Positions 5,561 through 57,489 are shown, counted from the first letter of the stretch. The stretch is DNA of 64,000 bases from a virus (IMGVR_UViG_3300034093_001947); one strand, 5' to 3'. The notes: a model not told the origin generated them from the sequence alone. Made by a program: numbers and translations.

Positions 5561-5615
5561 TTTGCCTGTCAAGCATCTGGACATAGTCCAGTTAGACATG
5601 TTGGGCGAGGACTTC

Positions 5616-5644: not shown

Positions 5645-5650
5645 TTAAGT

Positions 5651-38826: not shown

Positions 38827-39491
38827 GCACAGTATGGACACAGATGCAGCAGTGTGCTGAAACTATGCAGGCCATGATGGAACATGCAGGGTACAGAGCA
38901 GAAGATCCTAGTTTAGATCAATACGACTGGGAAAATCATGTATACCATAGTAATCTGTTTCGTAGAGGACACGTGGAAGTAGTAGACAAGACTACAACAC
39001 ACGGAATATACATCCTACATGCAACAGTATTCCCACACCCAGACGATCCTAGTCCTATCTGGGGTTTTGATGCTGTCTGCGGCAAGAACAAGATCACAGG
39101 TGCGTTTCATGATTTTAGTCTAGTAAGCAAAAGCCATTGGTTGCACGACTGGTTTGCAGATACTGTAAAAGACGTAACTTGGAACAAGAAACGAGAATTA
39201 CCCGGGTGGGCTCGTAATATTTTTAGCCCTGCTATGGTAGCAGCGGGTAATATTAGCGAGCAGCACGAGTTAGATAATATTATAGATCTAGGAATTAAAA
39301 CCCTAGATTACTATCTACACAATGTAGGAGATCGCATTAACGGGGTCGATGTTACTGACCAACAAAATTACTACTGTCAAAATCAGAAACAAAATCCCCA
39401 TGTGTATCGCAGCATGATTGCTATGGGAGTGCCGGAAGCAACTATCCGACAGTTTGTTGAGCAAGTGCTGTTCCCTGAAATTGGTAAATAA
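38823..39491 (+). CDS. ferredoxin-dependent bilin reductase, copy 2 (paralog)
   Basis: …WENHVYHSNLFRRGHVEVVDK…LHATVFPHPDDPSPIWGFDAVCGKNKITGAFHDFS… runs parallel to copy 1. Confidence 0.65.
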   Translation: MSTVWTQMQQCAETMQAMMEHAGYRAEDPSLDQYDWENHVYHSNLFRRGHVEVVDKTTTHGIYILHATVFPHPDDPSPIWGFDAVCGKNKITGAFHDFSLVSKSHWLHDWFADTVKDVTWNKKRELPGWARNIFSPAMVAAGNISEQHELDNIIDLGIKTLDYYLHNVGDRINGVDVTDQQNYYCQNQKQNPHVYRSMIAMGVPEATIRQFVEQVLFPEIGK

Positions 39492-41262: not shown

Positions 41263-41745
41263 ATGCGATTTTTAATTCTCGGCCTGGCCTTGTCTGCAAT
41301 GACGGTACAGGCTGCACCAATAAATGACTTTACTTTTAAAAGTCCGGCCTTCAACGGAGCAGGTTACAGTAGTCACGTCTTAACTATCGAAAATCAAGAA
41401 GCGACTCGTAGAAAAGCTCTACAAGATAGACTTCAAGCAGCATTAGACAAAGAGGCTGCTGACAAAAAGAACACTAACTTGGCTAAGTTTTTAAACAACT
41501 TAGAGTCTAGAATCTATGCACAAGTTAGCCAAAACGTAGCAACTGCTATGTTTTCTAATAGCGGATGCACCAGTACTACTCCTACAGCAGATTGTAAAGG
41601 TGAGGTTGATTTCCAAGGCAGCAAAATCAGCTGGCAAAAAGTTATATTAGTAGACGGCAACTTTATTCGTCTAACTGTAGTAGGTCCAGATATCAATACC
41701 ACTATTGATATTCCGTTAAGTCAATTTGTAGTTCCGGGGATATAA
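41263..41745 (+). CDS. csgF: curli assembly protein CsgF-like
   Basis: Signal peptide. The mature N-terminus …FTFKSPAFNGAGY… resembles CsgF …FQFRNPNFGGNPN…, and the later …FLNNLESRIYAQVSQNV… resembles …DNFTQAIQSQILGGL…. Confidence 0.55.
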   Translation: MRFLILGLALSAMTVQAAPINDFTFKSPAFNGAGYSSHVLTIENQEATRRKALQDRLQAALDKEAADKKNTNLAKFLNNLESRIYAQVSQNVATAMFSNSGCTSTTPTADCKGEVDFQGSKISWQKVILVDGNFIRLTVVGPDINTTIDIPLSQFVVPGI

Positions 41746-41746: not shown

Positions 41747-42661
41747 ATGAAAAAAATATTATTAGTACTAGTCTTTACAAGTTTTCTAACAGGGTGTGCA
41801 ATACATCAAAATAATCCTTTAGTAGAGGCGGACAAGCCCGAAGTTACCGCAGTGATGATGCAGAAAGAATTTGATACTATACAGGAGCCTGCACACGGAA
41901 AACCTGTTAGTGTTGCGGTGTATAGTTTTAAAGATATGACTGGTCAGAGAAAGCCGCAGGCCAATATTGCCAGTTTAAGTTCCGCAGTTACACAAGGTGC
42001 AGAAAGCTTCTTGATCAAAGCACTGCAAGATGTAGGTCGAGGACAATGGTTTGATGTTGTTGAGCGGGTAGGTATCGATAACTTGACCAAAGAAAGATTA
42101 ATTATTCGTCAGATGCGTGAAGCATATGAAGGAGCGGCTGCAAAGCCATTAATGCCAATGCAGTTTGCTGGCATGATTATTGAAGGTGGTATAGTAGGTT
42201 ATGACAGTTCAACAAAGAGTGGCGGCATTGGTGCAAGAGTCTTTGGTATTGGAAAACAGACTCAGTGGAGTCAGGATATTGTAACCATAAGCCTAAGAGC
42301 AGTGAGTGTTAATACTGGAAAAGTATTAGCATCTGTAACTGTGCAAAAAACAATTCTTAGTTCGGCTGATGCAATAACTGCTCTTAAATTCTTTGACCTA
42401 GGCACTAGGGCATTTGAAGGCGAAGCAGGATTAACAATAAACGAGCCAGGAACATATGCTGTAAAATCAGCAATCGAAGCCGGAGTGGTTGAACTTATCA
42501 AAGAAGGAGCTCGTAAGGGGCTTTGGAATTATAAGGGAGCAAAAAATGAGTTGGTTCAAAAGAACACCGAAAGCGAAAGAGCCCCAGAAGGCCCTTCCGC
42601 AACGCCGCAGTCCAGTGTCAGAAAAGATGCTGAAGGAAGCAAAGAAGTCAGGGCCAAGTAA
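41747..42661 (+). CDS. csgG: curli secretion channel lipoprotein CsgG-like
   Basis: Lipobox LTGC. …VSVAVYSFKDMTGQ… matches CsgG …VSVYNIQDETGQ…, …GMIIEGGIVGYDSSTKSGGIGARVFGIG… matches …GSIIGYESNVKSGGVGARYFGIG…, and …KTILSS… and …GLW… continue the match. Confidence 0.8.
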   Translation: MKKILLVLVFTSFLTGCAIHQNNPLVEADKPEVTAVMMQKEFDTIQEPAHGKPVSVAVYSFKDMTGQRKPQANIASLSSAVTQGAESFLIKALQDVGRGQWFDVVERVGIDNLTKERLIIRQMREAYEGAAAKPLMPMQFAGMIIEGGIVGYDSSTKSGGIGARVFGIGKQTQWSQDIVTISLRAVSVNTGKVLASVTVQKTILSSADAITALKFFDLGTRAFEGEAGLTINEPGTYAVKSAIEAGVVELIKEGARKGLWNYKGAKNELVQKNTESERAPEGPSATPQSSVRKDAEGSKEVRAK

Positions 42662-42717: not shown

Positions 42718-43497
42718 ATGAAGAAGCTAAATCAAGTAATGACAGCGATTGTGATGTTAGTCGCTTTACAAGTTTTCGCAGCAGACAATAGTATCTATAT
42801 TGATCAAACAGGTGACAACTCTGTTATCACTATGCTACAAGATGGTGCAACCAACCGCGTCCGCGGCATACAAGGCACGGGCACAGGCAACACTACTCCG
42901 TCAAAAATCAAAGGTGATAATTTAACTTTGATTGTTGAACAAATTGGTAGTGCTAACATTTTAAACTTGGGTGTTGTAACTGCCACAGCTAGTGGCGGCG
43001 TTGATACTAGTGTTATATATCGAGTAACAGGTAATAGCGGTATCGGTACTATCAATATGAACAATAGCGAGCAGGGTACTGCAAATAGTAATACTGTTTC
43101 TATTGATCAAACAGGCGATTATACTATTGCTAACCTTAATTTACTAGGATCTAATAACATATTCAATGCTGTTACAGACGGTAACTTGAATCAAATTGTT
43201 GCTACAATTGATGCGGATCAAGTTACTGTAAACATCAATAAGAGTAGCGGAACTGCAAATAACACTACACTAAATTTAACTGGTGCAAAAGGCACAGTAG
43301 ATTTAACCATATTAGGTGCTAGTAACGCAACGAATATTACTCAAAGTGGTGGTGGTGCCGACGGACACATTGCAACATTGAATATCAATGGATCTAATAA
43401 CAATACCACAGTTGTACAAAGTGGTACTATCAATACCAATGTTAATCTTGCTGTGGCAGGAAGCGGAAACACAGTCAGCATTACTACTGGTAATTAA
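42718..43497 (+). CDS. curlin-repeat secreted subunit (CsgA/CsgB-like)
   Basis: Signal peptide plus repeated S-x5-Q-x-G-x2-N-x-A/I units (IYIDQTGDNSVITMLQDG, VSIDQTGDYTIANLNLLG, ITQSGGGADGHIATLNINGSNN, VVQSGTINTNVNLAVAGSGN). Confidence 0.6.
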   Translation: MKKLNQVMTAIVMLVALQVFAADNSIYIDQTGDNSVITMLQDGATNRVRGIQGTGTGNTTPSKIKGDNLTLIVEQIGSANILNLGVVTATASGGVDTSVIYRVTGNSGIGTINMNNSEQGTANSNTVSIDQTGDYTIANLNLLGSNNIFNAVTDGNLNQIVATIDADQVTVNINKSSGTANNTTLNLTGAKGTVDLTILGASNATNITQSGGGADGHIATLNINGSNNNTTVVQSGTINTNVNLAVAGSGNTVSITTGN

Positions 43498-43505: not shown

Positions 43506-44621
43506 ATGTCTGTATGTCGCTTAATCTTATTAGGCTTATTGATCAGTACCTCGCTGAACAGTCAAGCCAGCATCGGAACAGTGACGGAGTTGCTGAACGC
43601 ACCTCCCAGCATACAGAGAAAGAATTCAACTCTAACAGGCAACAAGGGCACGGGAGTAGAAATGAACGACTCTGTGAAAACAGCAGCGGGCAAAGTGGGC
43701 ATAACGTTCGAGGATCAGACTCGAGTACAGGTTAATGAAAACTCTAGATTGGTCATTGACGACTTTGTATACGATTCAAAATCAAAATCCGGTAAGCTGG
43801 GTGTTAAAGTTGCATTGGGCACTGTTAGATACGCCAGTGGACAAATTGCCAAGAACTCACCGCAGAACGTTGCAGTTAACACACCCACTGCTACTATCTC
43901 AGTTCGTGGAACTGATTTTACCGCCACCGTAGATGAAATGGGTGGCAGTACTGTAATTTTGTTACCAAGTTGCCCAAATGATCGTCCTACTCGTACAAAT
44001 AGAGATATTGAAGCCAATTGTGTTGTAGGGACTATCATAGTTGAAACAGATGTTGGTCAGGTTATTCTTAATCAAGCATTCCAAGCAACCAAAGTAGCTA
44101 GCAGGGCTGCACTGCCTACTAAACCTGTTATCCTTACTCTCAGTGAAGATGCTATTAGTAATTTGTTAATCATAAGTCCTCCACAAGAACTAAAGCAGGG
44201 CGGTAAAAGAGAAACAAGTCTAAATCATAATGCATTAGATGCTGACTTCTTGAGAGAGCAAGGACTTGAAAACAAATTAGATCAACAAAATGCACAATTT
44301 TTTGAAGATAGACTTACTCGTAACTTTTTAGATAATAATTTTTTAGCTAACATATTTGATGTAATAGGTAGCGGCTTAGATGAAGATTATCTAAAAGACG
44401 AAACGGACAGCATATTGCCAGACTGGAAAAGAGCAAGCGGTATTATTGTGACTAAGGACGAGGGTCAAATTGGGTTATGTAGAGATAACGGTAGCGATAT
44501 ACAATGCGTAACAACACCGTTGACACAGAACAGTTTGATAACGCAGATACAAGGTAGTATTGAATTTAGTAACAGAGTAAATTCGGGCGGTAATACTATT
44601 ATTACCATAGTACAAAGATGA
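43506..44621 (+). CDS. secreted FecR-domain protein
   Basis: Signal peptide; …GKVGITFEDQTRVQVNENSRLVID…TATISVRGTDFTATVDE… is FecR/DUF4974-like. Confidence 0.45.
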   Translation: MSVCRLILLGLLISTSLNSQASIGTVTELLNAPPSIQRKNSTLTGNKGTGVEMNDSVKTAAGKVGITFEDQTRVQVNENSRLVIDDFVYDSKSKSGKLGVKVALGTVRYASGQIAKNSPQNVAVNTPTATISVRGTDFTATVDEMGGSTVILLPSCPNDRPTRTNRDIEANCVVGTIIVETDVGQVILNQAFQATKVASRAALPTKPVILTLSEDAISNLLIISPPQELKQGGKRETSLNHNALDADFLREQGLENKLDQQNAQFFEDRLTRNFLDNNFLANIFDVIGSGLDEDYLKDETDSILPDWKRASGIIVTKDEGQIGLCRDNGSDIQCVTTPLTQNSLITQIQGSIEFSNRVNSGGNTIITIVQR

Positions 44622-46363
44622 AGAAAATATTATTAGCATTAATGTTATTATGTTCAAATGCCTTTGGTGCTATCACTGACGGTAAGTTTGGTATCAATCA
44701 AATATTCGATGTTCAATATTACTGGAGTGGTAACACACTAAACGCCAGCAACTTTATTGCACCTTATAATAAAAACTTTCAAACAGTAACCGTAACCTCA
44801 GGACAGTACTTCCAATTCTTTGACAGCACAACCAATCCAGGTAAGCACGGATTGAAGTTAATGAACAGCAATGGAACACAACACAGCATTGTTCACGACC
44901 ACGGTGACATTACAGCACTAGGCAATGGTGCCATTTTTTATATCGGTTCGGGATTCTTTGGCAATGTTATTACTACTGCTCAGGGTTATAACTACGGTGC
45001 TAGTGCCAGTTTCACTAACATGGATACTAGTGTTACTAGCACAGACTTAAACAATTATACCTATGCGAGTTCAACTCCGTTATCAGCAGGACAAACAGCA
45101 GCCCCTCCTCCGCCTACAACTGATTGGAAAACAATCAAGACTAACAGCACGCCTGTTGTGATTAGTAACATTTACCCAACTAGTAATAACAGTCCAGCAG
45201 GCGAAGGTGCAGGCAATGCGTTCGACGGTAATACTGGTACAAAATACTTAAATTTTGATAAAAAGAATGCAGGAGTTACAGTTAAATTAAGTCAAGGTCG
45301 TGTAGTACAAAAATTTACCTTAACTACTGCTAACGACTTTGAAGGACGCGATCCTACTAGTTACAAACTCTACGGAAGCAATGACGGCGTAAATTGGGTA
45401 TTAATTAAACAGGATACCGTGTCTTTAAGCGATCAAAGATTTTGGACCAGTCCGGAGATACAAACAGGCAACACTACTGCCTATGTCTATTACTTTATTT
45501 TATTCCCTACTACTAAATCAGGAGACGGATGCGGCCTTAACTGCGACAGTATGCAGATCGCTGAAATCACTTTTTACTACGACTTAAATGACGGAGTCAC
45601 TAGCACTGCAACAGGTTCGGGCAGTACTCCAAACAATCCGGGTACTGCTGGCAGCGTCTGTGCTGACTGCGGTCCAACTGTAGTAGGCGGAACAATCACA
45701 CAGACAAATGCACCATCAAATCAAACTATACAAAGTGGCGGTACTTATGTTAATAATTCTAGTAGAGCTGCACAACAGACTAGAATCAATACTTGGGTTA
45801 ACAGTACTTCACCTTATAGTAATTCGGTGCATGTTGATCAGATAGGTGGGGACAACAATAACATAACTATCAACGTAACAGGAACAAAGAACCGAGTTGA
45901 GTTGACTTTAGACGGAGCTGGAACTAATACTATCGGCATCACACAAGTTGGTTCAAACTACGTAACAGCAGATGTTAATGGTTATCAAAATAACTTGACA
46001 TCCAGCCAGACAAATACCATTGGTACTAATTATACTGAAACTGTGATAAACGGCAATAACAACACTGCAAATCACACACAGGGCAACAGTCAGTTGTTAT
46101 TCAGCACAGTTAGCGGTAATAACAATACGCTAGTCACTAGCCAAACAGGCACGGGACAACATTATCTCGATGTTAAGATGACGGGCAACGGGCACAATGT
46201 AAATGTTAATCAATTTGGTTCCATGGCTAATAATGCAAGAATTGATGTGACCAATGCCGGCGGGGCCGCAACTGTAGATCTAGAACAAAGCGGCGGCAAG
46301 AGTTTTACTCTAATACAGAGTTGTGCAATTTTATCAGGATGTAACACCACAGTTAGACAGTAA
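44618..46363 (+). CDS. large secreted protein with an F5/8 type C (discoidin) domain and C-terminal curlin repeats
   Basis: Signal peptide; …GNAFDGNTGTKYLNFDKKNAGVTVKL…YKLYGSNDGVNWVLI… discoidin motifs; the C-terminal third has curlin-like repeats (VHVDQIGGDNNNITINVTG, ITQVGSNYVTADVNGYQNN, TSQTGTGQHYLDVKMTGNGHN, VNQFGSMANNARIDVTNAG, LEQSGGKSFTLIQS). Confidence 0.55.
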   Translation: MKKILLALMLLCSNAFGAITDGKFGINQIFDVQYYWSGNTLNASNFIAPYNKNFQTVTVTSGQYFQFFDSTTNPGKHGLKLMNSNGTQHSIVHDHGDITALGNGAIFYIGSGFFGNVITTAQGYNYGASASFTNMDTSVTSTDLNNYTYASSTPLSAGQTAAPPPPTTDWKTIKTNSTPVVISNIYPTSNNSPAGEGAGNAFDGNTGTKYLNFDKKNAGVTVKLSQGRVVQKFTLTTANDFEGRDPTSYKLYGSNDGVNWVLIKQDTVSLSDQRFWTSPEIQTGNTTAYVYYFILFPTTKSGDGCGLNCDSMQIAEITFYYDLNDGVTSTATGSGSTPNNPGTAGSVCADCGPTVVGGTITQTNAPSNQTIQSGGTYVNNSSRAAQQTRINTWVNSTSPYSNSVHVDQIGGDNNNITINVTGTKNRVELTLDGAGTNTIGITQVGSNYVTADVNGYQNNLTSSQTNTIGTNYTETVINGNNNTANHTQGNSQLLFSTVSGNNNTLVTSQTGTGQHYLDVKMTGNGHNVNVNQFGSMANNARIDVTNAGGAATVDLEQSGGKSFTLIQSCAILSGCNTTVRQ

Positions 46364-46472: not shown

Positions 46473-47342
46473 ATGACTGTAGTAGGAATAAACGCTCTTA
46501 ACCACGATGCTAGTATTGCGGTTGTGGACAATGGTCAAATATTGCACCATGAACGATCCCTGTGTGGAGTTGACCTTTGTCCTGAACTAGTTGATCGTGC
46601 ATTATCATACGGAGCAGTAGATGCAATTGCTTGGTACGAAAGGCCTTGGCTGAAAAAGTCACGGCAGCTATACGCAGGGCAATACAGAGATGCAGTCAGC
46701 ATTGATCAGCTACCTCATTACTATCTAAAAAAATTTAACATACCTTCTGTTCCAATTTATTATGTGCCGCATCATTTAAGTCATGCAGCCAATGCAGTAT
46801 ATGAAAGTAGATTAGCTGAGACTGCGGTCGTAGTAGCCGATGCAATTGGAGAGTGGGATACTGTGAGTATCTGGCATTATAAAGATCAAAAATTTAAAAA
46901 AGTATTTTCAAAAGGTTATCCTTATAGCCTTGGTTTGTTCTACTCAGCATTTACAGAGTTACTGGGATTTAAACCTGTCCAAGAAGAGAGCAAACTTACT
47001 ATGCTAGCAACATCTGGTGATTGGGAACCAAACTACTTAACAGTCTGCGGCTACCTAACAAAGAATCTGCATAAAGGAATCTGGGATTGGGAAGTAGCAG
47101 AAAAAGATCGTGCAGACGTAGCTGCCAGCGTACAACGTGTGTTCATGGAACAGATAAAAAATTGCTTTAAACTTGCCTCTTTTCACAGTAATTCTTGTGT
47201 TTTTACAGGCGGATGTGCCTATAATGTGCCTGCAAAAAGGCTTCTTTCATCTACATTTAAACACAGCTATGTTCCAAAAAATCCAGGCGATGCAGGGTCA
47301 AGCATGGGTGCTGCACTATACATATCGGATAAACTAAAATAA
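46473..47342 (+). CDS. ASKHA-fold carbamoyltransferase/Kae1-like protein (NodU/CmcH N-domain-like)
   Basis: N-terminal MTVVGINALNHDASIAVVDNGQILHHERS resembles the carbamoyltransferase N-terminus (ILGI…HD.S.ALV.DG). Confidence 0.4.
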   Translation: MTVVGINALNHDASIAVVDNGQILHHERSLCGVDLCPELVDRALSYGAVDAIAWYERPWLKKSRQLYAGQYRDAVSIDQLPHYYLKKFNIPSVPIYYVPHHLSHAANAVYESRLAETAVVVADAIGEWDTVSIWHYKDQKFKKVFSKGYPYSLGLFYSAFTELLGFKPVQEESKLTMLATSGDWEPNYLTVCGYLTKNLHKGIWDWEVAEKDRADVAASVQRVFMEQIKNCFKLASFHSNSCVFTGGCAYNVPAKRLLSSTFKHSYVPKNPGDAGSSMGAALYISDKLK

Positions 47343-47349
47343 ATACATC

Positions 47350-47634
47350 ATGAGAGCACACGAATTTATTAACGAAGACTGGAATAAAGTCAACAGAAAA
47401 GATAAGACTGATGGTCTAAGCCAAAAGGCAGTAAATGCTTACCGAAGAGAGAATCCGGGTAGTAAGTTAAAGACAGCAGTAACTACTAAGCCTAGCAAAT
47501 TAAAAGCAGGTAGCAAGGATGCTAAACGCCGTAAGAGTTTCTGTGCCCGTATGAGTGGCAATAAAGGTCCTATGAAAAAGCCTAACGGAAAACCTACACC
47601 AAAAGCATTAGCACTACGCCGATGGAATTGCTAA
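47350..47634 (+). CDS. small basic hypothetical protein
   Basis: ORF; Lys/Arg-rich. Confidence 0.35.
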   Translation: MRAHEFINEDWNKVNRKDKTDGLSQKAVNAYRRENPGSKLKTAVTTKPSKLKAGSKDAKRRKSFCARMSGNKGPMKKPNGKPTPKALALRRWNC

Positions 47635-47637
47635 TTT

Positions 47638-48285
47638 ATGAAACCTACCGTTGCCCTGTTTTTGTATGATCCTAAATGTAGCGTACAGTCAGGCAATGGA
47701 GTTATACGATCATTACAGTCACATTATAACTTTAAAATATTCAGCATCAATCCCTTAGAAGATAACTTCTTTGATGATGTAGACATGATAGTTATTCCTG
47801 GCGGCTTTGGTGATGCTAGTACATTTGACCGTGCATTTAAATATACTAAAGATAGAGTTAAAACATTTGTAAGCGGTGGTGGTAAGTATTTAGGTATATG
47901 CATGGGTGCGTATTGGGCCGGCCAACACTATTTTGATATACTGGACAGCGTTGATGCTGTTCAATACTCAACGCAACCCAATACAGATACACGCAGACCA
48001 CACGCTAAAAATATCAGTATAACTTGGAAAAACCAGCCAATGAATATGTTTTGGTATGATGGTTGTGCTTTAGTAGGTAACTCTGCTAAGTTTAACACCA
48101 TTGCCACATATGCAAACGGAGACGCTATGGCTATTATACAAAACAATATCGGTGTAATAGGTTGCCATCCAGAAAGTGAAAACTATTGGTACGATAGCTA
48201 CTCATGGATGGCGGGCAAGTATCACAATGGACAACATCACCGTCTGCTTTTAGACTTTGCTAACCAACTAAATACTGGATGTTGA
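47638..48285 (+). CDS. class-I glutamine amidotransferase-like fold protein
   Basis: …MIVIPGGFGDAS…GGKYLGICMGAY… (possible nucleophile elbow G-x-C-x-G). Confidence 0.4.
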   Translation: MKPTVALFLYDPKCSVQSGNGVIRSLQSHYNFKIFSINPLEDNFFDDVDMIVIPGGFGDASTFDRAFKYTKDRVKTFVSGGGKYLGICMGAYWAGQHYFDILDSVDAVQYSTQPNTDTRRPHAKNISITWKNQPMNMFWYDGCALVGNSAKFNTIATYANGDAMAIIQNNIGVIGCHPESENYWYDSYSWMAGKYHNGQHHRLLLDFANQLNTGC

Positions 48286-50333
48286 AAAAAATCCTAACAA
48301 GTCCATGGACAGCATTGCTGACATTGGCACTTATTTTAAGTATAAGAATTGCTGATCCTGTCTTTGTAGAAAGTATAAGACTACGCTATTTTGATACGCT
48401 GATTACATCTAAAGAAACTACTGTTAACAACATTGTTACAGTAAACATTGATGAAGGGAGCTTAGACAAATATGGACAATGGCCGTTACCTCGTGTTGAG
48501 TATTCCCGACTTATACGAGATTTATATCAGAGGGGAGCGGGCCTTGTGGTACTTAACGTACTCATGCCAGAAACAGATCGTACAGGTGGTGACAGTCAAC
48601 TGGGTAAAGCTCTAAAAGAATACCCAGTTGTATTAGGCAGCATTCCTGCACAGAAAACAAAGAACGAACCACGCAATCCCGGTTCGGCAGTATTAGGTCC
48701 TGAGTACTTGGATCAAATTATACAGTATCCGGGTTTGATTGCCAACGTACCTGTGTTAGAGAACGCAGCAGCAGGTGTTGGTATCGTAAACACACTGCCA
48801 GAAGTAGATGGTGTTAATCGCAGATTGCCGTTAATTGTCACAGTTGACGGTAAGTTATATCCTAGTCTAGCTATGGAAACACTCCGCGTAGCGGCAGGCG
48901 ATTCAACATTCCAAGTCAAGCTATTTGAAGGTGGAGTTGAGAAGATGCGTATACCTAAGTTTGGTCCTGTAGCAACAGATAACTTAGGTCGCATATGGAT
49001 TGATTGGAGTCAGGCAAGTCACAGCGTTAGTGCAGTAAACCTGCCAAAAGATCTAGCAGGTGCTATTGTTATCGTAGGCCCAACAGCCGCAGGTATTGCT
49101 AATCCATTACCCACTAGTAAGGGTGCAGTATTTCCACACGAAGTACAGGCCGCAGTAATAGGCACAATGATGAACAATGTAACTATCCAGCGTCCGGATT
49201 ACGCAGATGGTGTGGAAATTATTGTACTGTTAGCAGCAGGCGTACTATTATTATTTTTAACAAGGTGGGTATATGTTGGACTTGGAACAGTGGTTGCTCT
49301 TTCTATGGGTGGTGTTGCTGTCAGCATGTATGCTTATAGCCAGTATCTTTATCTGTTTGATGCTACTGCTTTTGTCAGTGGCATATTGCTTGTGGCATTA
49401 CATGCATACGGAGTTAAATTCGTAAGCGAGTTTTTACAGAAGCAGGCAATCAAGAAACAGTTTGCAGGTTACGCTAGTCCTACAGTGGTTAGATTACTGC
49501 AAGAAAATCCAGACCTTATTAAGAAGGGTGTTAAGAAAGAAGTCAGCATACTGTTTTCAGACTTACGTGGCTTTACACCCCTAGGTGAAAGCTTTGGTGA
49601 TGATGTTGCGGGGCTTACACGTATAATGAACGGCTACATGGACGCTATTACGCAACCTGTATTAGATGCAGACGGAATGATTATCAAGTACATCGGTGAT
49701 GCCAGTATGCACATACACAATGCACCCATTGAAGATCTTAATCACCCGTCAACAGCAGTTCGCACAGGATTAAAGATGCTTAGAGCTGTAGATACTTTTA
49801 ACCGAGACGTGATTGTTCCGCAAGGCAGACCACCAGTTGGTATGGGTGCAGGCATTAATACAGGATTGGGCTACATCGGTGAGATGGGCAGTACAGCTCG
49901 ACACAGTTACGATGTACTAGGCGATGCCGTTAGCACAGCCGCACGTATCGAAAGCAAGTGTAAAGAATACGGTTGCCTGTTATTAGTAGGTGGAGCAACC
50001 GTTCAACGATGTGCTGACGAGTTCTTCTTCCTTAAGATTGACGACCTAGCAGTTAAAGGTAAGAGTGTAGGAGTTGCTATCTATACAGTACTTGACCCTG
50101 ACGTAACTGTTGCCGCAGAATATTTGTTAGCACAAGAAACTCATAATGAAATGCACTCATGTTATAGACAGCAGAAATGGGACGATGCCATTACACTGTG
50201 TGAAGAACTGAAAGATGAGTTCGACGGGCAAATGAAAAAATACTACAGCATGTGGATAGAACGCTGTGAGTTTCAAAAGACTCAAATACTTCCAGCCGAC
50301 TGGAATGGCGTATTCATAGCCACAAGCAAGTAA
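48279..50333 (+). CDS. CHASE2 sensor domain-containing class III adenylate/guanylate cyclase
   Basis: N-terminal TM and a CHASE2-like region (…VNIDEGSLDKYGQWPLPR…LIRDLYQRGAGLVVLNV…), a TM cluster at about residues 300-370, then a cyclase homology domain (…ILFSDLRGFTPLGE…KYIGDASM…GINTG…). Confidence 0.7.
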   Translation: MLKKILTSPWTALLTLALILSIRIADPVFVESIRLRYFDTLITSKETTVNNIVTVNIDEGSLDKYGQWPLPRVEYSRLIRDLYQRGAGLVVLNVLMPETDRTGGDSQLGKALKEYPVVLGSIPAQKTKNEPRNPGSAVLGPEYLDQIIQYPGLIANVPVLENAAAGVGIVNTLPEVDGVNRRLPLIVTVDGKLYPSLAMETLRVAAGDSTFQVKLFEGGVEKMRIPKFGPVATDNLGRIWIDWSQASHSVSAVNLPKDLAGAIVIVGPTAAGIANPLPTSKGAVFPHEVQAAVIGTMMNNVTIQRPDYADGVEIIVLLAAGVLLLFLTRWVYVGLGTVVALSMGGVAVSMYAYSQYLYLFDATAFVSGILLVALHAYGVKFVSEFLQKQAIKKQFAGYASPTVVRLLQENPDLIKKGVKKEVSILFSDLRGFTPLGESFGDDVAGLTRIMNGYMDAITQPVLDADGMIIKYIGDASMHIHNAPIEDLNHPSTAVRTGLKMLRAVDTFNRDVIVPQGRPPVGMGAGINTGLGYIGEMGSTARHSYDVLGDAVSTAARIESKCKEYGCLLLVGGATVQRCADEFFFLKIDDLAVKGKSVGVAIYTVLDPDVTVAAEYLLAQETHNEMHSCYRQQKWDDAITLCEELKDEFDGQMKKYYSMWIERCEFQKTQILPADWNGVFIATSK

Positions 50334-50804
50334 TATCTGCAGGCCTACTATCCAAAATAGATCGCCATTTCGGTCGCAATCATTTTGGATAGCCTGTATA
50401 ATGTAAGTTACACACTTACATTCACACTCCCATTATTCGCAACTTAAGGTGAAACAGCACCGGTAATTTTCTGTTGGTCAAGGTTCTGACGTGTGACCCA
50501 ATGACCTAGCCTCATTGCGAGGGCGATTTCAATCCACTACCCGAGAGGATGCTTAAACGTCTGCCCACTGGCACGAAACGTTTGGATTGTCATAATAGTT
50601 GAAAAGATTTTCTATACTCTCATAGGAACAGTGACACCGCAGTTTCTTTAAAAGTCGTAGTAGGTTGGGTAAGGTACAGAGCCCAGAAGAGTGAAGATCA
50701 AATACCTACTGTCAAGTGTGTGCAGAGCAACTCAGCAAACATCATAAGATCACCCTCCGTAGAGGGTGTCGTATGGCTTCACAATCTAGCAAAACTTTCT
50801 CAAA

Positions 50805-51140
50805 TCAACTTTCACCTGATGTAGCTGACTTAGTATCTTCGTTACCCTCGCTTTTAGAGCGGTCTATTTTATTAATTGCTTTCTCTGCTTCTACACGTTC
50901 AAACTCAATTGTCTTACCACGTAGATGTAACACTGTATTAACTTTTTGGTTAAGTCTGATAAGGTCATTATCCAACATACGTATACGATCAATTAGTGCA
51001 ATCAAAACTGTGTTAGCATCGCTAATAACTGGTTTCACTTCCTTAGTAGCCCATTCCCACACATACTTGATAATGAATCCCATGCCTACTGCCATAACAA
51101 TAGGGAATCCGTACTTGTTAACTAATTCAACGACATCCAT
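50805..51140 (-). CDS. small membrane protein with a periplasmic coiled coil (lysis-cassette candidate)
   Basis: Start set at MDVVEL with an AGGAG RBS; TM (FPIVMAVGMGFIIKYVW), then …ALIDRIRMLDNDLIRLNQKVNTV… similar to the 51464 ORF. Confidence 0.45.
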   Translation of the reverse strand: MDVVELVNKYGFPIVMAVGMGFIIKYVWEWATKEVKPVISDANTVLIALIDRIRMLDNDLIRLNQKVNTVLHLRGKTIEFERVEAEKAINKIDRSKSEGNEDTKSATSGES

Positions 51141-51953: not shown

Positions 51954-52493
51954 ATGAAAACAGTCGGTGACAAATTAGCCCCATTCGCAGTAACAGGCGT
52001 AAAGTTTGGACAACCAGAAGATGCATTCTTCGAAATTACAGAGAAGTCATTTCCAGGCAAGTGGAAAGTAATCGTTTACTATCCAAAAGACTTTACATTT
52101 GTTTGTCCTACAGAAATTGTAGCCTACGACAAACTAGCCGCAGATTTTGATGACCGTGACGCAGTATTGCTCACAGGGTCAACAGACAATGAGTTCTGTA
52201 AAGTCAGCTGGCAAAATGCTCACGCTGATCTAAAGAACATTCGTCATAATCAATTCGCAGACACACAGCGTGGTGAGTTGAGTTTGATTGAGCAGTTGGG
52301 CGTATTCTATGCACCTGCAGGTGCCGCACTTCGTGCAACATTCATTGTTGACCCCAACAACGAGATCCAACACGTAACTGTGAACAACTTGAACGTTGGT
52401 CGCAACCCAGAAGAAACACTTCGTGTTCTTGATGCGTTACAAACAGGCGAGCTATGTGCTTGTAACCGTACAGTTGGTGGCGAGACTCTATAA
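51954..52493 (+). CDS. ahpC: peroxiredoxin (AhpC/TSA family)
   Basis: Peroxidatic Cys motif …DFTFVCPTEI…, a thioredoxin fold, and a candidate resolving Cys near the C-terminus (…ELCAC…). Confidence 0.8.
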   Translation: MKTVGDKLAPFAVTGVKFGQPEDAFFEITEKSFPGKWKVIVYYPKDFTFVCPTEIVAYDKLAADFDDRDAVLLTGSTDNEFCKVSWQNAHADLKNIRHNQFADTQRGELSLIEQLGVFYAPAGAALRATFIVDPNNEIQHVTVNNLNVGRNPEETLRVLDALQTGELCACNRTVGGETL

Positions 52494-52888
52494 TGTTAGA
52501 ATGCCTTATCTTAGGCGATAGTATTGCTCAAGGCATTAGCACAGTTCGTAAAGAATGTGTTGCTTATGTTAAGAGCGGTATTAACAGCTACAACTGGAAC
52601 AATAGAAATATTGTCAAAGATTTATCTGCCAATACTGTGATTATCAGTCTCGGAACTAATGATCCTGATACTATAAACTCTTTTAAAGAATTGTTGTTAC
52701 TGAGGCAACAAATCTATGCAAAAAAAGTCATGTGGGTAATGCCGCCTATTAAACCAGCGGTGCAGGATATTGTTAGAATCATTGCTAACAGTTTTGGTGA
52801 TACTATTTTGACAATCCCAGAGTTATCGAAAGATAAGGTACATCCTACATATAATGGATATAAACAATTAGCGGAGATGACAAAATGA
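52493..52888 (+). CDS. SGNH/GDSL hydrolase-like protein
   Basis: N-terminal ILGDSIAQG (GDS block). Confidence 0.45.
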   Translation: MLECLILGDSIAQGISTVRKECVAYVKSGINSYNWNNRNIVKDLSANTVIISLGTNDPDTINSFKELLLLRQQIYAKKVMWVMPPIKPAVQDIVRIIANSFGDTILTIPELSKDKVHPTYNGYKQLAEMTK

Positions 52889-53391
52889 GTTTTATTGAAT
52901 CAGTAAAAGGTGCGTTGCCAGACTATGCAAAGGACACCAAGTTAAATCTTGATGCTGTTCTACTGCGTAGCACACTGGATGCAGATGTAGCCTTAGGGTG
53001 TGCTGTGGCTGCATTGGCTGCAACTGGCAACGGTAAAGTACTTAGCATCCTGTTAGCAGATGCCCCAGTACATGCAGAGTCAGCAATGACTGCGGCCAGT
53101 ATCATGGCACAGAACAATGTATGGTATCCATATGTTGAGATGGCAGATGATCCTGCCCTAAAAGGCCTGCCAGCACAGTTACGCATGAACGCCATTGCGT
53201 CACACGGCGGAACTACCAAATCAAACTTTGAAGCGTTTAGTCTTGCAGCCAGTATTGTTGGAAAATGCCACTTCTGTGTAAAAGCACATTACGAAACATT
53301 AAAGACTGAAGGCTATACAGTGGAACAACTTCGTGACATTGGCCGAATCGCTTCTGTTATGAACTCAGTAGCAAAAGTTTTAAATAGCTGA
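52885..53391 (+). CDS. ahpD: AhpD-like alkylhydroperoxidase (carboxymuconolactone decarboxylase family)
   Basis: …GKCHFCVKAHYE… gives the CxxC…H catalytic signature of the AhpD/CMD family; the gene follows the peroxiredoxin. Confidence 0.6.
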   Translation: MSFIESVKGALPDYAKDTKLNLDAVLLRSTLDADVALGCAVAALAATGNGKVLSILLADAPVHAESAMTAASIMAQNNVWYPYVEMADDPALKGLPAQLRMNAIASHGGTTKSNFEAFSLAASIVGKCHFCVKAHYETLKTEGYTVEQLRDIGRIASVMNSVAKVLNS

Positions 53392-53900
53392 TGCGAGTTG
53401 TAATCACAGGACACACAGGCGGGCTCGGGCTCGCCTTTTTCAATTACTTAACACAATCAGGTCACGAGGTTGTGGGTGTGTCTAGATCAAATGGTTATAC
53501 ACTGCCTGAAAAGTTTGAAGAAGTTGTCAACTTAGCAGAGACTGCTGATCTGTTCATTAACAATTTACACCTTCACACTATACAATATGAATTTTTAAAA
53601 CGTTTATATAATAAGACTTCTATTATAACTTGCGGATCTATGGCTGCTGACTACCCTAATCCAGACATTATTCGTTATGCTACTGCAAAAAAACTTATTG
53701 AAATTGAACATAAGAAATTAAAAAAGGAATCTCAATTTCCAATGTTGTTGCTGAAAATGGGATTCCTTGAAAACTGGACACAGTATGATTCAATTCCGTA
53801 TCAACAGATTATAAATGCTGTTGACTTTTGGATTAAGAATCCTCGTGCAAGTTTAATAGAGTTTGATAATGTTAACTACAATAACGGCTTTACCAAATAA
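53391..53900 (+). CDS. short-chain dehydrogenase/reductase-like NAD(P)-binding protein
   Basis: N-terminal VVITGHTGGLGLAF Rossmann glycine motif. Confidence 0.45.
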   Translation: MRVVITGHTGGLGLAFFNYLTQSGHEVVGVSRSNGYTLPEKFEEVVNLAETADLFINNLHLHTIQYEFLKRLYNKTSIITCGSMAADYPNPDIIRYATAKKLIEIEHKKLKKESQFPMLLLKMGFLENWTQYDSIPYQQIINAVDFWIKNPRASLIEFDNVNYNNGFTK

Positions 53901-54873
53901 AGTTTTTAGTATAATACTTAACGATACTTTTCAACTCTGAATCAAACTTAGCAACTGGTTTCCAGCCAAGGTGTTGTAATTTAGCATCGTCAATTGCATA
54001 TCGTACATCTTGACCTGGGCGTTTTTCTGTAGTGTCTAGATACTGATCTGGATCTCCCTTTAGGCCCATTGCTTTAATAATCTTCCTGGCAACTACAATA
54101 TTTTGTTCTTCGTAGTTTCCACTAATGTTATATACTTCGTTTACAACGCCTACTTCTATAATTTTAATAACTGCGGCTGCTGTATCACTGGCATGTAACC
54201 ATGTACGTCTTGGTGTGCCGTTATCGTGCAATGTTGCCTTTTTACCTAAACTCAAATATTTTATAGTGTGAGGAATAAACTTCTCAGTATATTGTCCAAT
54301 ACCGTAATTGTTAGTAGGACGAACAATTACATAAGATATACCGTAGGTACGTGCCCAAGCTGTAATTAACATGTCAGCCGATGCCTTTGTAGCAGAATAC
54401 GGGTTGCTAGGCTTTAATAGATCTTCTTCTGTATGGAATCCTTTTTCAATATCTCCATAAACTTCATCTGTAGAAAAATGTAAGAATATAGGCTGTTTTC
54501 TAGCAGCCTTTATTTTTTCTAAAATATGATGAACTCCGTTAATGTTACTTTCTAAAAATACTTTGCTACTGGTAATACTGTTATCTACATGAGTCTCGGC
54601 AGCGGTATTAATGAAATAATCACACTCATACAATTTGTCTATTTCATTTATATCTTTGTTTTCAAATATAAATCTTTTATATTTTTTTAAGTCGTCTAGC
54701 AAATTCCAATTGGCTGCATAGGTGCCTTTGTCAATGCCACGAACGTGCCATCCTCGTTCTAAACAGGCCAGTGTTACATGATAACCTATAAAACCTAAAC
54801 ACCCTGTTACATATACTGTTTTAATCATTTTAATTCCTTGATAACCATTCTGGATTGGCCAAGTACCAATCAA
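53890..54873 (-). CDS. rfbB: dTDP-glucose 4,6-dehydratase-like NAD-dependent dehydratase
   Basis: …VYVTGCLGFIGYHV… Rossmann motif, a Y…K catalytic pair and RfbB-like length. Confidence 0.7.
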   Translation of the reverse strand: MIGTWPIQNGYQGIKMIKTVYVTGCLGFIGYHVTLACLERGWHVRGIDKGTYAANWNLLDDLKKYKRFIFENKDINEIDKLYECDYFINTAAETHVDNSITSSKVFLESNINGVHHILEKIKAARKQPIFLHFSTDEVYGDIEKGFHTEEDLLKPSNPYSATKASADMLITAWARTYGISYVIVRPTNNYGIGQYTEKFIPHTIKYLSLGKKATLHDNGTPRRTWLHASDTAAAVIKIIEVGVVNEVYNISGNYEEQNIVVARKIIKAMGLKGDPDQYLDTTEKRPGQDVRYAIDDAKLQHLGWKPVAKFDSELKSIVKYYTKNFIW

Positions 54874-55771
54874 TTGTTTGTTTTAGTCTATCCTCTAAAC
54901 TCGAAGGTTCTACCCAACCTCTATCATATAACTTCCAGGGATCTACTGAAAAGCATAAATCGTGTCCAGGCCGATCGACTGGCACATATTCTAAACTAAT
55001 TTCTTTGTTCATTAGCTTGGCAATAATCTGAGCAAGGTCTGCGTTATTAACAAACTTCCTACCTGCACTATTCCATTTTTCACAAATGTCTTTTTGATTA
55101 TCTAAAATGAATCTAGTATGTAATGCAACATCTTCTGCATGAAACCATCTACGTCCGCCTATTGCTTTGCTAGGACCTACATGAATAGATAAAGGTTCTC
55201 CCTTTAAAATTTTAGACATAGCAATAACTGGAAATCTATTAGACTGGCACATTGGACCGAATGTGTTATTGATATGAATAATACTTACCGGAAGCCCAAA
55301 TGATTTACTATAAGAAACACATAATTCTTCGCCTGCTGCTTTACTTGCGGCGTAAGGACTGTTAGAATTGTATGCATCGTTTTCATAACTATCTTGCCCG
55401 ATTGGAATAGGACCAAACACTTCGCCGGAACTGTAGTAAACAAACTTTTCTACTTTTGATTTTCGAGCAAACTCTAATAAGTTTACAGTACCAATAACAT
55501 TATCTGTTACAGCACCCACCGGGTCGTTGATACTGTCGGCTGCACTAGGATTAGCACCTGCGTGTAGTATAATATCAATGTCGTGTATATTTGGTAATGG
55601 TTCTCTAATGTTATGGTTAACAAATTCAACCATACTGTATACGTCTAACAAACGATCTAAATTTTTAGATCCCGGACGAACAAGACACACCACCTTGTGA
55701 TCTTTTAAAAACTCTTTAACTAAATTGTGGCCTATAAATCCTGTGCCGCCTGTAATTAAAACTTTTTTCAT
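54830..55771 (-). CDS. NAD-dependent sugar epimerase/dehydratase (CDP-glucose 4,6-dehydratase-like)
   Basis: VLITGGTGFIGHNLV and …YAASKAAGE… (YxxxK). Confidence 0.6.
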   Translation of the reverse strand: MKKVLITGGTGFIGHNLVKEFLKDHKVVCLVRPGSKNLDRLLDVYSMVEFVNHNIREPLPNIHDIDIILHAGANPSAADSINDPVGAVTDNVIGTVNLLEFARKSKVEKFVYYSSGEVFGPIPIGQDSYENDAYNSNSPYAASKAAGEELCVSYSKSFGLPVSIIHINNTFGPMCQSNRFPVIAMSKILKGEPLSIHVGPSKAIGGRRWFHAEDVALHTRFILDNQKDICEKWNSAGRKFVNNADLAQIIAKLMNKEISLEYVPVDRPGHDLCFSVDPWKLYDRGWVEPSSLEDRLKQTIDWYLANPEWLSRN

Positions 55772-56403
55772 TTTGCTACATAAACTCTATCAGACCAGTA
55801 CTCGGTTACAAACTCATAATTCCAACGAGCTAGATATGTTTCGATCATTTCAAGCGTTACACCGTATCGATGAGCCCATTCCTCCCACCATTCGATACAA
55901 ATAACAGGTCTAAACTTTTCAATAGTTTGTTCTGCACCTAGTAGCCCAAAATACTCAAATCCTTCAGTATCTAAATGGATAGCATCGCAAGCATCTAATC
56001 CCAAGTCGTCAATGCGTAAAGTAGGTAAGATTCCCGATCCCGATACATGTGTAGCACCTACATCAGTTGCCCAATGTCCTAGTCCGTGTAATCCTCGTTC
56101 ATTTCCTAAACAGGCTTGAAACTTTACTACATTAGAGGTATCTGCATTTAGCGTGAGAGATAAAAAATTTAAAGGATCTGGTTCAAAAGTATAGACACGA
56201 TCAAACATTTCTCCGTACTTTTTAACATAGAACCCTACATTGCCGCCTGCCTGTACAAGAACGCCTTTGTTTGGAACATGTGTAGCAAACTTTTCAGGTA
56301 CATCCGGATGGCTATGCATAAAGTCCCAACAACCTTGATCGTGATTGGGCCACCAGTATTCTCCACGCTCGCCTATTAAATTTGTTAAATTTGTTTTACT
56401 CAT
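55768..56403 (-). CDS. FkbM-family methyltransferase
   Basis: …VQAGGNVGFYV…VYTFEPDPLNF… matches FkbM blocks. Confidence 0.5.
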   Translation of the reverse strand: MSKTNLTNLIGERGEYWWPNHDQGCWDFMHSHPDVPEKFATHVPNKGVLVQAGGNVGFYVKKYGEMFDRVYTFEPDPLNFLSLTLNADTSNVVKFQACLGNERGLHGLGHWATDVGATHVSGSGILPTLRIDDLGLDACDAIHLDTEGFEYFGLLGAEQTIEKFRPVICIEWWEEWAHRYGVTLEMIETYLARWNYEFVTEYWSDRVYVAK

Positions 56404-56404
56404 T

Positions 56405-56884
56405 TTATGTCCTTCTTATGTTTAGATAGCAAGGCCTGTCGTTATAAAGGAACTCTTCCCAAATATCGTTTAGCTCTTCAATGCTGTTTGGTTTATAAAT
56501 CTTAATATTAGGAAATGCTCGTAATGCATCTTCATCATCGATTGCCCAATGACTAAATCCTAAATGGCCGTAATCTTTATCTCGACCTGTACCTACTAAT
56601 TTAACAGGAGCACCTTCATGGTTGAGATAGTTACGCAACCATTCATATGGTCGGAAAATTACAAAAGGTGTGATACTGTAACAAATAGGAATTTTATTAT
56701 GGTGAGTAAGTCCTACTGCGGCTCCCAGCATAAGCTGTTCAGCGGCACCTACGTTATATGCACGATCGGGTGCAACTTCTCTAGCTTTGTTTAATACACC
56801 AAATCCTAAGTCACCTGTTAACAGCCAAAGGCGACTGTCCTTTGATATACTTTCAGCTAACAGTTCTCCAAATCTATTTCTCAT
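56405..56884 (-). CDS. transketolase-family protein, C-terminal (pyrimidine-binding) subunit
   Basis: Paired with the upstream N-terminal subunit; the layout matches split transketolases found in sugar-modification clusters. Confidence 0.5.
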   Translation of the reverse strand: MRNRFGELLAESISKDSRLWLLTGDLGFGVLNKAREVAPDRAYNVGAAEQLMLGAAVGLTHHNKIPICYSITPFVIFRPYEWLRNYLNHEGAPVKLVGTGRDKDYGHLGFSHWAIDDEDALRAFPNIKIYKPNSIEELNDIWEEFLYNDRPCYLNIRRT

Positions 56885-57489
56885 AATTGTGCATAGTCCT
56901 CTGGCTTTAATACGTAATAGTGTGTTAGAATACCTTCAGCCCATGGCCACTTAGGCGGTTCTGTTTCGCGAATGTTAATGCGTGGTAAGAAAGCACGTAA
57001 CCGATTAATGATATATTCTTTGTCAATAAAGTCGTAGGCGATCATCCCGTTGACGTTTACATATACTTCTAAGTTATCTAACTTGGCTTCGTAGATAAAA
57101 CGCAATGCTTCCCAAATACTACCTTCTCCGCATTCGCCGTCGCTGATAAGACAATGTACCTTTCGAGTTCTGTCTGCTAGGGCATAACCGGTGGCAACAG
57201 TAAGCCCCATCCCGAGACTACCTGTACTACAATAGATACCACTGCCAACATCACGATGAGGATGTACCCCATGCTTGTGGAATAAAGATTCTGCATTTTG
57301 TCCTTCATATTTTTCCAATACAACATATAACGCTAGGGCCGCATGACCAGAACTTAAAATAAAGGGCTCGTCTATCTTTTTATTTTTATAAATTTCTTCA
57401 ATGATATTAACCGCATTAAGATTAGAACTAAGATGTCCAATCTTTTCTTTGTAGCTAATATCAATTACTCTACGTTCTACGCCATTCAT
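56881..57489 (-). CDS. transketolase-family protein, N-terminal TPP-binding subunit
   Basis: …SSGHAALALYVVLE… and …DGECGEGSIWEA… TPP-binding motifs. Confidence 0.55.
   Translation of the reverse strand: MNGVERRVIDISYKEKIGHLSSNLNAVNIIEEIYKNKKIDEPFILSSGHAALALYVVLEKYEGQNAESLFHKHGVHPHRDVGSGIYCSTGSLGMGLTVATGYALADRTRKVHCLISDGECGEGSIWEALRFIYEAKLDNLEVYVNVNGMIAYDFIDKEYIINRLRAFLPRINIRETEPPKWPWAEGILTHYYVLKPEDYAQL

Follow-up and report, generated by a model that had tools for sequence, protein, structure and literature searches.

A phage-encoded CHASE2 receptor-type class III cyclase linked to a viral curli-like secretion and FecR cassette

Why would a phage carry a membrane receptor whose cytoplasmic half is a nucleotide cyclase, and what ties such a gene to a cassette for curli-like secretion? 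The question is raised by a gene on the plus strand of IMGVR_UViG_3300034093_001947, a viral stretch of 64,000 nucleotides (64 kb; hereafter the window), at positions 48279-50333. An earlier note on this DNA, made from the sequence alone, had read the gene as a sensor cyclase with an extracytoplasmic CHASE2 domain, situated just downstream of a curli-like cassette. Aquatic viromes abound in phage curli modules, which encode a type VIII secretion system (T8SS), and what these modules do is an acknowledged puzzle (PMC7029224, PMC9004378, PMC9599517). Here we describe the cyclase, its active site, its linkage to the phage T8SS genes and its bacterial relatives, and weigh what it may do during infection.

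Architecture and active site of the cyclase

The open reading frame (ORF) is exactly as the earlier note gave it, running from ATG to TAA and encoding 684 amino acids, and its first 7 nt are shared with the end of the upstream gene. The protein matches PHROG 35576 over its full length (E 9e-193), a family that PHROGs labels 'unknown function'; an NCBIfam scan of the protein returned no family. Both Pfam models that the note had named as a check scored far above their curated cut-offs: CHASE2 (PF05226) at residues 16-322 (48324-49244, on the plus strand like all features given below unless stated; E 1.8e-39, 136 bits against a cut-off of 26, profile positions 3-256 of 257) and Guanylate_cyc (PF00211) at residues 419-596 (49533-50066; E 8.2e-15, 55 bits against 22). 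Hydropathy places one transmembrane (TM) helix at residues ~9-29 (48303-48365), after a short Lys-rich cytoplasmic N-terminus, and three more at residues ~312-379 (49212-49415), which would lead the chain back to the cytoplasm.

An AlphaFold2 (AF2) model of the monomer, computed from an alignment of 108 diverse sequences, reached a pLDDT of 94 and a pTM of 0.78. In it, an alpha/beta CHASE2 domain is joined by long membrane helices and a helical linker to the cyclase domain, which three further helices follow at the C-terminus, and the model's helices at residues 11-25 and 309-395 fit the predicted TM segments. With Foldseek, the catalytic domain superimposed on Pseudomonas aeruginosa CyaB (3r5g; TM-score 0.90, root-mean-square deviation 1.6 A) and Spirulina platensis CyaC (TM-score 0.86), and these proteins were also its best sequence matches among solved cyclases (E 5e-18 and 1e-16). 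A fold search for a solved CHASE2 structure yielded only cyclase-domain matches in its top 50. Pfam, hydropathy and the AF2 model agree on the order that had been noted, an N-terminal TM helix, CHASE2, several TM helices and a class III cyclase, and the two motifs quoted at the time, FSDLRGFTPLGE and KYIGDASM, are found in the protein. The predicted topology has the N-terminus inside, CHASE2 in the periplasm, and the catalytic domain with its helical extension in the cytoplasm after the three TM helices. We regard as near certain the identification of this phage protein as a class III cyclase of the membrane receptor type, with CHASE2 as its extracytoplasmic domain.

The extension beyond the catalytic domain (residues 601-684; 50079-50330) is covered by no Pfam family, and is delimited by its conservation and by three helices at residues 609-667 of the model. 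Residues Y629, R662, W675, G677 and K684 are invariant or nearly so among the 108 diverse sequences, and the window tail, DWNGVFIATSK, follows a nearly invariant pattern, W-x-G-V-x-x-A-T-x-K. Most bacterial CHASE2 cyclases have this extension; phage enzymes of the type found in the cultured phage HTVC008M are missing it.

Catalytic residues were assigned from alignments to 43 solved cyclases (phmmer), 122 close homologues, 150 representatives of 50%-identity clusters and 83 phage genes. The window cyclase retains five of the six canonical catalytic residues. The metal-binding aspartates D428 (in FSDLRGFT; 49560-49562) and D474 (in YIGDASM; 49698-49700), the substrate lysine K470 (49686-49688), the transition-state arginine R556 (49944-49946) and the lysine of the VKGK motif, K593 (50055-50057), are invariant in 83/83 phage genes, and the metal-binding pair is also invariant in the ~150 diverse representatives. 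The transition-state Asn position is occupied by S552 (49932-49934). Loss of the Asp pair or of the transition-state Asn and Arg had been named in the earlier note as the sign of a pseudo-cyclase; the Asp pair and the Arg stand, and the Asn does not.

The second specificity position is D545 (49911-49913), so that the pair in the window is K470 with D545, the adenylate type, where bacterial relatives have Lys with Ser or Thr. Lys with Asp is the classical ATP-specifying pair of class IIIa, IIIc and IIId adenylate cyclases; more broadly, Lys with Asp, Thr or Ser goes with ATP, and Glu with Cys or Gly with GTP, as in guanylate cyclases. No Glu/Cys or Glu/Gly signature is present in the window cyclase. 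The residues that had been proposed for telling the substrates apart point to ATP rather than GTP as the predicted substrate, and cyclic AMP (cAMP) would then be the product. The class IIIb enzymes CyaB (3R5G) and CyaC (1WC0/1WC1) share the metal-binding Asp pair, the Lys and the Arg with the window cyclase but differ in keeping the canonical Asn and in having Thr in the place of D545, and they carry MASE2 and no regulatory domain, respectively, in place of CHASE2.

Ser552 is always accompanied by Asp545, by 'IIK' (elsewhere 'IDK') and by 'MH' (elsewhere 'MA'). This Asp/Ser (D/S) type was found in 76/83 phage genes and in all 122 close homologues, and in 0/76 bacterial cyclases taken from genomes, every one of which has Ser or Thr together with Asn; the Asn is also kept in 136 of the 147 diverse representatives that could be scored. 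Among phage genes, the canonical site is confined to HTVC008M and six metagenomic genes. The most divergent D/S gene that could be placed (P0126, 40% identity) likewise belongs to a T4-like phage; a further gene (P0170), on a 3.9-kb contig, may be of phage or of bacterial origin. An 'Ile + Ser' variant seen at four bacterial loci proved to be an artefact, neighbouring CHASE2-Ser/Thr-kinase ORFs having been picked in place of the cyclases. Because the Ser is invariant and co-varies with D545, we infer an active site that has probably been remodelled and not one that has died. An invariant natural Asn-to-Ser change held under strong purifying selection offers a useful test of how necessary that residue is.

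Linkage to the phage secretion cassette and exchange of domains

Relatives of the cyclase are present on at least 578 viral contigs in IMG/VR, the identical protein occurs on 22 contigs, and the ratio of non-synonymous to synonymous substitution (dN/dS) is ~0.05-0.09 in the two globular domains, which rules out chance as the source of the feature. Genomic context was scored in the 80 best viral loci, 61 of which have at least 7 kb of upstream flank. In 59 of these 61, genes for CsgF, CsgG, a curlin-like protein, a FecR-domain protein and, in some, a second curlin-like protein precede the cyclase. With FecR behind the first curlin gene and the cyclase last, all on one strand, the arrangement of the window is shared by 58 phage loci. 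Five further phage loci have the cassette inverted and just downstream of the cyclase, still adjoining it. The linkage is kept across cyclase genes that are 56-97% identical, with a gap between cassette and cyclase that ranges from ~0 to 3.3 kb and varies in content; in the phage carrying P0126, the FecR stop codon overlaps the cyclase start. These results show that the cyclase is the terminal gene of a conserved viral T8SS-FecR-cyclase module and, as far as sequence context can tell, not a free-standing gene for rewiring the host.

In the window the cassette begins with a CsgF-like T8SS component (41263-41745; PF10614, E 1.3e-6) and a CsgG outer-membrane lipoprotein pore with the lipobox LTGC (41747-42661; PF03783, E 4.8e-49). 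The small curlin-like repeat protein that follows is a candidate fibre subunit (42718-43497); it scores 10.9 bits with Curlin_rpt against a cut-off of 20.7, which its homologues in the cultured phage Melnitz and in loci L009, L016 and L046 exceed. Next comes a secreted FecR-domain protein that has no anti-sigma or TM part (43506-44621; PF04773, E 2e-11; PHROG 37870), a candidate periplasmic partner or output of the module. The last cassette gene (44618-46363) encodes a large secreted protein of 581 residues, with an F5/8 type C lectin-like domain (PF00754, E 2.4e-10) and Asn/Gly/Thr-rich C-terminal repeats that are homologous (phmmer) to the second protein with curlin repeats in Melnitz and in HTVC008M; the HTVC008M counterpart carries PA14 and matches Curlin_rpt at 33 bits. 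By inspection, all five cassette proteins have signal peptides.

Between this cassette and the cyclase lie three genes for cytoplasmic proteins (46473-48285; Pfam): a carbamoyltransferase-like protein of 289 residues that has the N-domain only, a DUF6321 protein and a GATase1/BPL_N-like protein. None of the three has a signal peptide, and the insertion is lineage-specific and probably not part of the module. A GATase-like gene recurs beside the cyclase, on either side, in L016, L020, L027, L073, L074 and L078.

Neither the family of this gene nor its association with the phage curli genes is new to the literature. In podo- and myoviruses of Pelagibacter, Wittmers et al. 2022 described a T8SS region with the order (histidine kinase)-CsgF-CsgG-CsgA/B-FecR-(second CsgA/B)-adenylate cyclase, termed FecR and cyclase putatively regulatory and closest to alphaproteobacterial versions, and found the T8SS, FecR and cyclase module expressed in ocean metatranscriptomes (PMC9599517). 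In that paper FecR is read as an iron regulator, the words 'CHASE' and 'transmembrane' are absent from the text, and catalytic residues are unmentioned (PMC9599517). The histidine-kinase gene before CsgF was described for the podovirus version (PMC9599517). It is not universal in the myovirus version: in the window, the protein encoded upstream of CsgF (562 residues) has no Pfam match at E <= 0.01 and only a marginal PADLOC match to PglZ. Two other papers on phage curli genes leave cyclase and FecR unmentioned, and the curli cassette has been placed in a hypervariable region (PMC7029224). GenBank entries for the Melnitz and HTVC008M homologues already say cyclase. What is added here is incremental: the nature of the protein as a CHASE2 receptor, the parallel with bacterial FecR and type I secretion loci, the D/S active site and the shuffling of domains.

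The nearest cultured relatives of the cyclase are those of the Kyanoviridae phage Melnitz (gp104, QZI94833.1; 51% identity, 96% coverage) and HTVC008M (AGE60353.1; 36%), each aligned over nearly its full length. Both phages, Melnitz of OM43 and HTVC008M of Pelagibacter, have the same T4-like, Kyanoviridae-type background and the same gene order, CsgF-CsgG-curlin repeat-FecR-second curlin repeat-cyclase, and the Melnitz enzyme has the same D545/S552 site and C-terminal extension as that of the window. The window differs from both in its CHASE2 domain, which is only 36% identical to theirs, in the three extra genes before the cyclase, and, relative to HTVC008M, in a fibre protein headed by F5/8-C where the counterpart has PA14. 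Curlin_rpt is passed by repeat proteins of Melnitz (L001, 6122-6841 and 7900-8916) and of HTVC008M (L002, 7598-8923, which also matches PA14); this conflicts with the statement of 'no csgA/csgB' in the Melnitz paper and agrees with Wittmers et al. 2022.

Selection acts unevenly along the protein. Over 48 pairs, dN/dS was 0.05 in the cyclase domain, 0.09 in CHASE2, 0.08 in the C-terminal extension and 0.34 in the TM region, so that the catalytic domain is the most constrained part and the TM region the fastest-evolving. Identities of the two halves are discordant. In CHASE2, Melnitz is 59% identical to HTVC008M and 36% to the window; in the catalytic domain the order is reversed, with 76% identity to the window and 36% to HTVC008M. 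L046 shares 81% identity with the window in CHASE2 and 46% in the catalytic domain, where its residues are canonical, and L052-L055 share 55% and 82%, respectively. Evidently, therefore, the sensor and catalytic halves of the gene have repeatedly recombined among phages, to judge from these alignments.

Correlations of pairwise identity resolve three units, namely CsgF/CsgG/FecR, CHASE2 with the TM region, and the catalytic domain with the C-terminal extension. The extension co-varies with the catalytic domain (rho 0.79), and these two domains are nearly uncorrelated with CsgF/CsgG/FecR (rho 0.04-0.19). Canonical catalytic domains, with Thr and Asn (T/N), and D/S domains occur behind similar CHASE2 domains and in the same cassette, which suggests that the two types may be functionally interchangeable. 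The natural D/S and T/N variants and the domain chimeras are ready-made comparisons, and Melnitz and HTVC008M are in culture.

Bacterial counterparts and the role of the module

Outside phages, the nearest homologues of the cyclase are ~27-33% identical and mostly from Alphaproteobacteria (Bradyrhizobium, Tardiphaga, Methylobacterium). Hidden Markov models (HMMs) of the phage cassette were used to search 80 bacterial loci. In 35/80 the CHASE2 cyclase has a FecR-domain gene no more than 10 kb away, and in 23/80 such a gene directly adjoins it; with the same phage-cassette HMMs, CsgF, CsgG and curlin were found near the bacterial cyclase in 0/80. Some bacterial FecR partners are short and others are 860-1517 residues long with cadherin-like, Big_9, VWA and RTX repeats, and in 18/80 loci the cyclase is flanked by two or more components of type I secretion. 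The bacterial FecR-CHASE2 clusters, like the phage module, include a dedicated secretion system and a secreted repeat protein, but in bacteria these are type I secretion with an RTX/cadherin adhesin and in the phage type VIII with curlin-like proteins.

Type I secretion clusters (HlyB-type ABC transporter, HlyD-type membrane fusion protein, TolC-like protein) were seen in L088, L091, L093-L095, L097-L101, L104, L109, L116, L126, L127, L133, L135 and L149, and also in L171. Giant proteins combining FecR with cadherin, Big_9, VWA or RTX repeats are encoded beside the cyclase in L087, L109 and L104. In the betaproteobacterial loci L131, L143, L153 and L166 the CHASE2 cyclase gene is preceded, at a distance of a few kb, by one for a CHASE2-Ser/Thr kinase, which places two CHASE2 receptors with different outputs side by side.

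The same pairing recurs in the literature. In Campylobacterota all adenylate cyclases are of the CHASE2 type and cluster with a phosphodiesterase, a FecR-domain protein and a TPR protein (PMC9239204); neither phosphodiesterase nor TPR genes are seen in the phage cassette. In Burkholderia, the 'BiofilmReg' operon, which encodes a CreB-like regulator, a LysM-FecR protein and a CHASE2 histidine kinase, has a secreted FecR directly upstream of a CHASE2 sensor and is tied to a biofilm/surface phenotype (PMC5192318). It differs from the phage module in being bacterial, in having a histidine kinase as its output and LysM on its FecR protein, and in lacking a secretion cassette. In Sinorhizobium meliloti, CyaD1, CyaD2 and CyaK share the TM-CHASE2-3TM-class III cyclase architecture of the window protein, and the gene order clr-cyaD1-smc02177(FecR) sets a FecR-domain gene next to cyaD1 (PMC5498481), as FecR accompanies the phage cyclase. 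Because the pairing of FecR with CHASE2 recurs in bacterial loci and in the literature, the phage FecR and cyclase are best viewed as a bacterial pair for signalling that has been joined to a type VIII secretion cassette. A terminal CHASE2 cyclase, a bacterial FecR pair and the ties of that pair to secretion shift hypotheses for the phage module towards envelope-to-cytoplasm signalling during infection, and away from iron regulation or simple pore formation.

On this evidence we consider it fairly probable that the gene encodes a signal-gated adenylate cyclase that acts as the cytoplasmic output of the phage T8SS-FecR module. An infected cell would install a phage envelope module made up of the CsgG/CsgF pore, secreted curlin-like proteins (one of them lectin-headed), the FecR protein and the cyclase. 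In the absence of a periplasmic or envelope cue, CHASE2 would keep the cyclase inactive. Such a cue, for which FecR or the condition of the secreted fibre is a possible relay, would release the catalytic homodimer to turn ATP into cAMP, which may act on a host receptor, either a CRP-family regulator or another cyclic nucleotide-binding protein, and so alter the physiology of the infected cell. What we infer is that the enzyme is catalytic despite the Asn-to-Ser change, that ATP is its substrate and that CHASE2 gates it, together with whatever part FecR plays and which cue and receptor are involved. The strong purifying selection favours an active, signal-gated adenylate cyclase. By analogy, S. 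meliloti supports a gated, outside-in model: its CHASE2 cyclases raise cAMP on an extracellular protein signal via the outer-membrane protein NsrA, and CyaD1 without CHASE2 is constitutively active (PMC13001267, PMC7529298, PMC5498481).

Several observations weigh against this model. The transition-state Asn is replaced by Ser552 without any indel (AVSTAAR against the canonical VNLAAR), and in mammalian and bacterial class III cyclases a change of that Asn makes kcat ten- to a hundredfold lower, so that the phage enzyme may have low or altered activity. S. meliloti encodes the CRP-type receptor Clr beside cyaD1, whereas a phmmer search sensitive to CRP-like sequences only found no CRP-like ORF in the 64-kb window (best E 0.12), and tblastn with CRP gave no match in Melnitz or HTVC008M. 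Across the phage collection the result was likewise negative, matches to 'Acinetobacter phage MD-2021a' having the look of bacterial DNA. The FecR-domain neighbour of cyaD1 in S. meliloti is a target of cAMP and Clr and is dispensable for perception, an output and not a co-sensor (PMC5498481). Across phages, FecR co-varies with CsgF and CsgG (rho 0.67-0.76), and a mirror-tree comparison of FecR with CHASE2 gave a rho of 0.31, which fell to nil once CsgG was entered in the regression; there is no specific FecR-CHASE2 signal, and we therefore do not claim their interaction as shown. The placement 'just downstream' of the curli-like cassette, as first noted, holds in that the cassette lies upstream on the same strand, but three unrelated genes part it from the cyclase in this phage. 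Promoter and terminator scans resolved no transcription units, with 43 promoter-like sites against 33 expected.

The substituted Asn could instead mark a low-activity enzyme or pseudo-cyclase that serves the T8SS and FecR as a membrane sensor or scaffold, through nucleotide binding or protein contacts. The near-universal Ser552 of the phage genes and their close homologues, where other cyclases have Asn, fits such a role, as does the failure of the CRP-like searches to find a cyclic nucleotide receptor in the phage. A scaffold, though, needs no intact metal site, and the Asp pair, substrate Lys, Arg and VKGK Lys are all invariant; the catalytic domain is the most constrained part of the protein, its Ser is invariant and tracks D545, and D/S and T/N domains replace each other in the same cassette. 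We therefore think a scaffold unlikely. Less likely still is that the remodelled pocket (K470, D545, S552, I469, H478/H480) makes cGMP, cCMP or cUMP, or shifts substrate preference. Correlated change at two substrate and transition-state positions does set this clade apart from all bacterial relatives, and the Pycsar pyrimidine cyclase profile matches the protein (E 6e-14); against this, Lys with Asp is the pair expected of an ATP-using enzyme, neither guanylate signature is present, and PycC matches no better than the generic Pfam model.

The neighbourhood bears on two further explanations. Acting alone, the cyclase could take over the host, with cAMP reprogramming catabolite control or metabolism, CHASE2 an inherited anchor and the cassette a mere neighbour in a hypervariable island. 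The variable genes inserted between cassette and cyclase, the separate evolution of the catalytic/C-terminal unit from the cassette and the hypervariable setting of the cassette (PMC7029224) would all suit such a gene. It is nonetheless a doubtful account, given a linkage that holds in all but two of the 61 loci and survives inversion of the cassette, a FecR and CHASE2-cyclase pair that recurs independently in bacteria (PMC9239204), and constraint on CHASE2 that an inert anchor would not need. The suggestion in the earlier note that the cyclase might interfere with cyclic nucleotide-based defence found no support, and we consider it very improbable that it makes or mimics a nucleotide signal against Pycsar, CBASS or similar immunity. 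What speaks for it is homology of a generic class III kind, the PADLOC PycC match standing at the level of the Pfam score. The window protein shares the class III-type fold with PycC but is phage-borne, with a periplasmic sensor and a Lys/Asp ATP signature, and has no adjoining effector activated by cyclic nucleotides; nor is there an anti-defence partner nearby, the neighbours tested having no PADLOC defence or counter-defence match except the marginal PglZ on the gene upstream of the cassette. To our knowledge, anti-cyclic-nucleotide proteins degrade or sequester signals and none make them. A sensor in the periplasm, a FecR partner and a cassette for secretion point instead to envelope signalling.

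A bolder form of the signal-gated cyclase, which we would not expect to hold as a whole, is an outside-in device in which a lectin-tipped curli-like fibre, sent out by way of CsgG/F, and FecR report an event outside the cell or in the periplasm to CHASE2 and the resulting cyclic nucleotide pulse sets the timing or outcome of infection. Its cue could be contact with a neighbouring cell or particle, superinfection or fibre assembly, and the device might be tuned by sensor and catalytic swaps and by altered kinetics or regulation of the phage-restricted Asp545/Ser552 site. If this were true, its bacterial counterpart would be a general and unrecognised surface-sensing system composed of a secreted type I adhesin, FecR and a CHASE2 cyclase.

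Phage background and other features of the window

The window is from a T4-like phage, with rIIA, rIIB, a ribonucleotide reductase small subunit, NAMPT, 14 tRNAs and a permuted tmRNA as hallmarks. These genes, together with recurrence of the cyclase in hundreds of viral contigs, led us to reject bacterial contamination as its source. A megablast search for near-identical DNA in cultured phages found none, and relatives are at the protein level only. Cyclase matches labelled 'Acinetobacter phage MD-2021a' (CAKLQH02.../CAKLQF02...) were set aside as not phage, the records carrying cyaA, crp and fnr and looking like a bacterial chromosome. The T4 late-promoter motif TATAAATA occurs twice in the 64 kb against 5 expected, neither copy being near the cyclase gene.

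The JGI samples behind the identical-protein contigs are probably freshwater, lake metagenomes. No curli operon was reported in freshwater SAR11 myophages (PMC7029224). The longest contig with the identical protein, 380,947 bp, is about twice the length of the 192,832-bp IMG/VR contig of a 97%-identical relative, which suggests a concatemeric assembly and not a 381-kb genome.

Downstream of the cyclase, a 470-nt stretch free of ORFs (50334-50810) separates it from the convergent genes that follow. Conservation of this stretch reaches 97% in L007 and, over 278 nt, 74% in L033; an Rfam search of it gave only a sub-threshold match to Polynucleobacter-1 (15 bits, E 0.6). The tmRNA (5612-5998, +) is of the permuted two-piece, alphaproteobacterial type (RF04321, 101 bits; RF01849, 71 bits); it was unreported by ARAGORN, and Melnitz has the same kind of phage tmRNA. 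The 14-tRNA array (61367-63948, +) includes duplicated Glu, Asp and Lys tRNAs.

Host-like auxiliary genes at 36396-39491 (+) encode a beta-ketoacyl synthase-like protein, a heme-oxygenase-like protein (by eye) and two ferredoxin-dependent bilin reductases, the last assigned through PF05996 on identical metagenome genes; just upstream, an Hsp20-like and a ClpS-like ORF were recognised by eye. At 51954-53391 (+), genes for an AhpC-type peroxiredoxin and an AhpD/CMD-type protein surround a small GDSL-like ORF. On the minus strand, 53890-60271 holds sugar-nucleotide and lipopolysaccharide-type genes, among them epimerases/dehydratases, a DegT aminotransferase, split transketolase-like genes, a methyltransferase and a glycosyltransferase.

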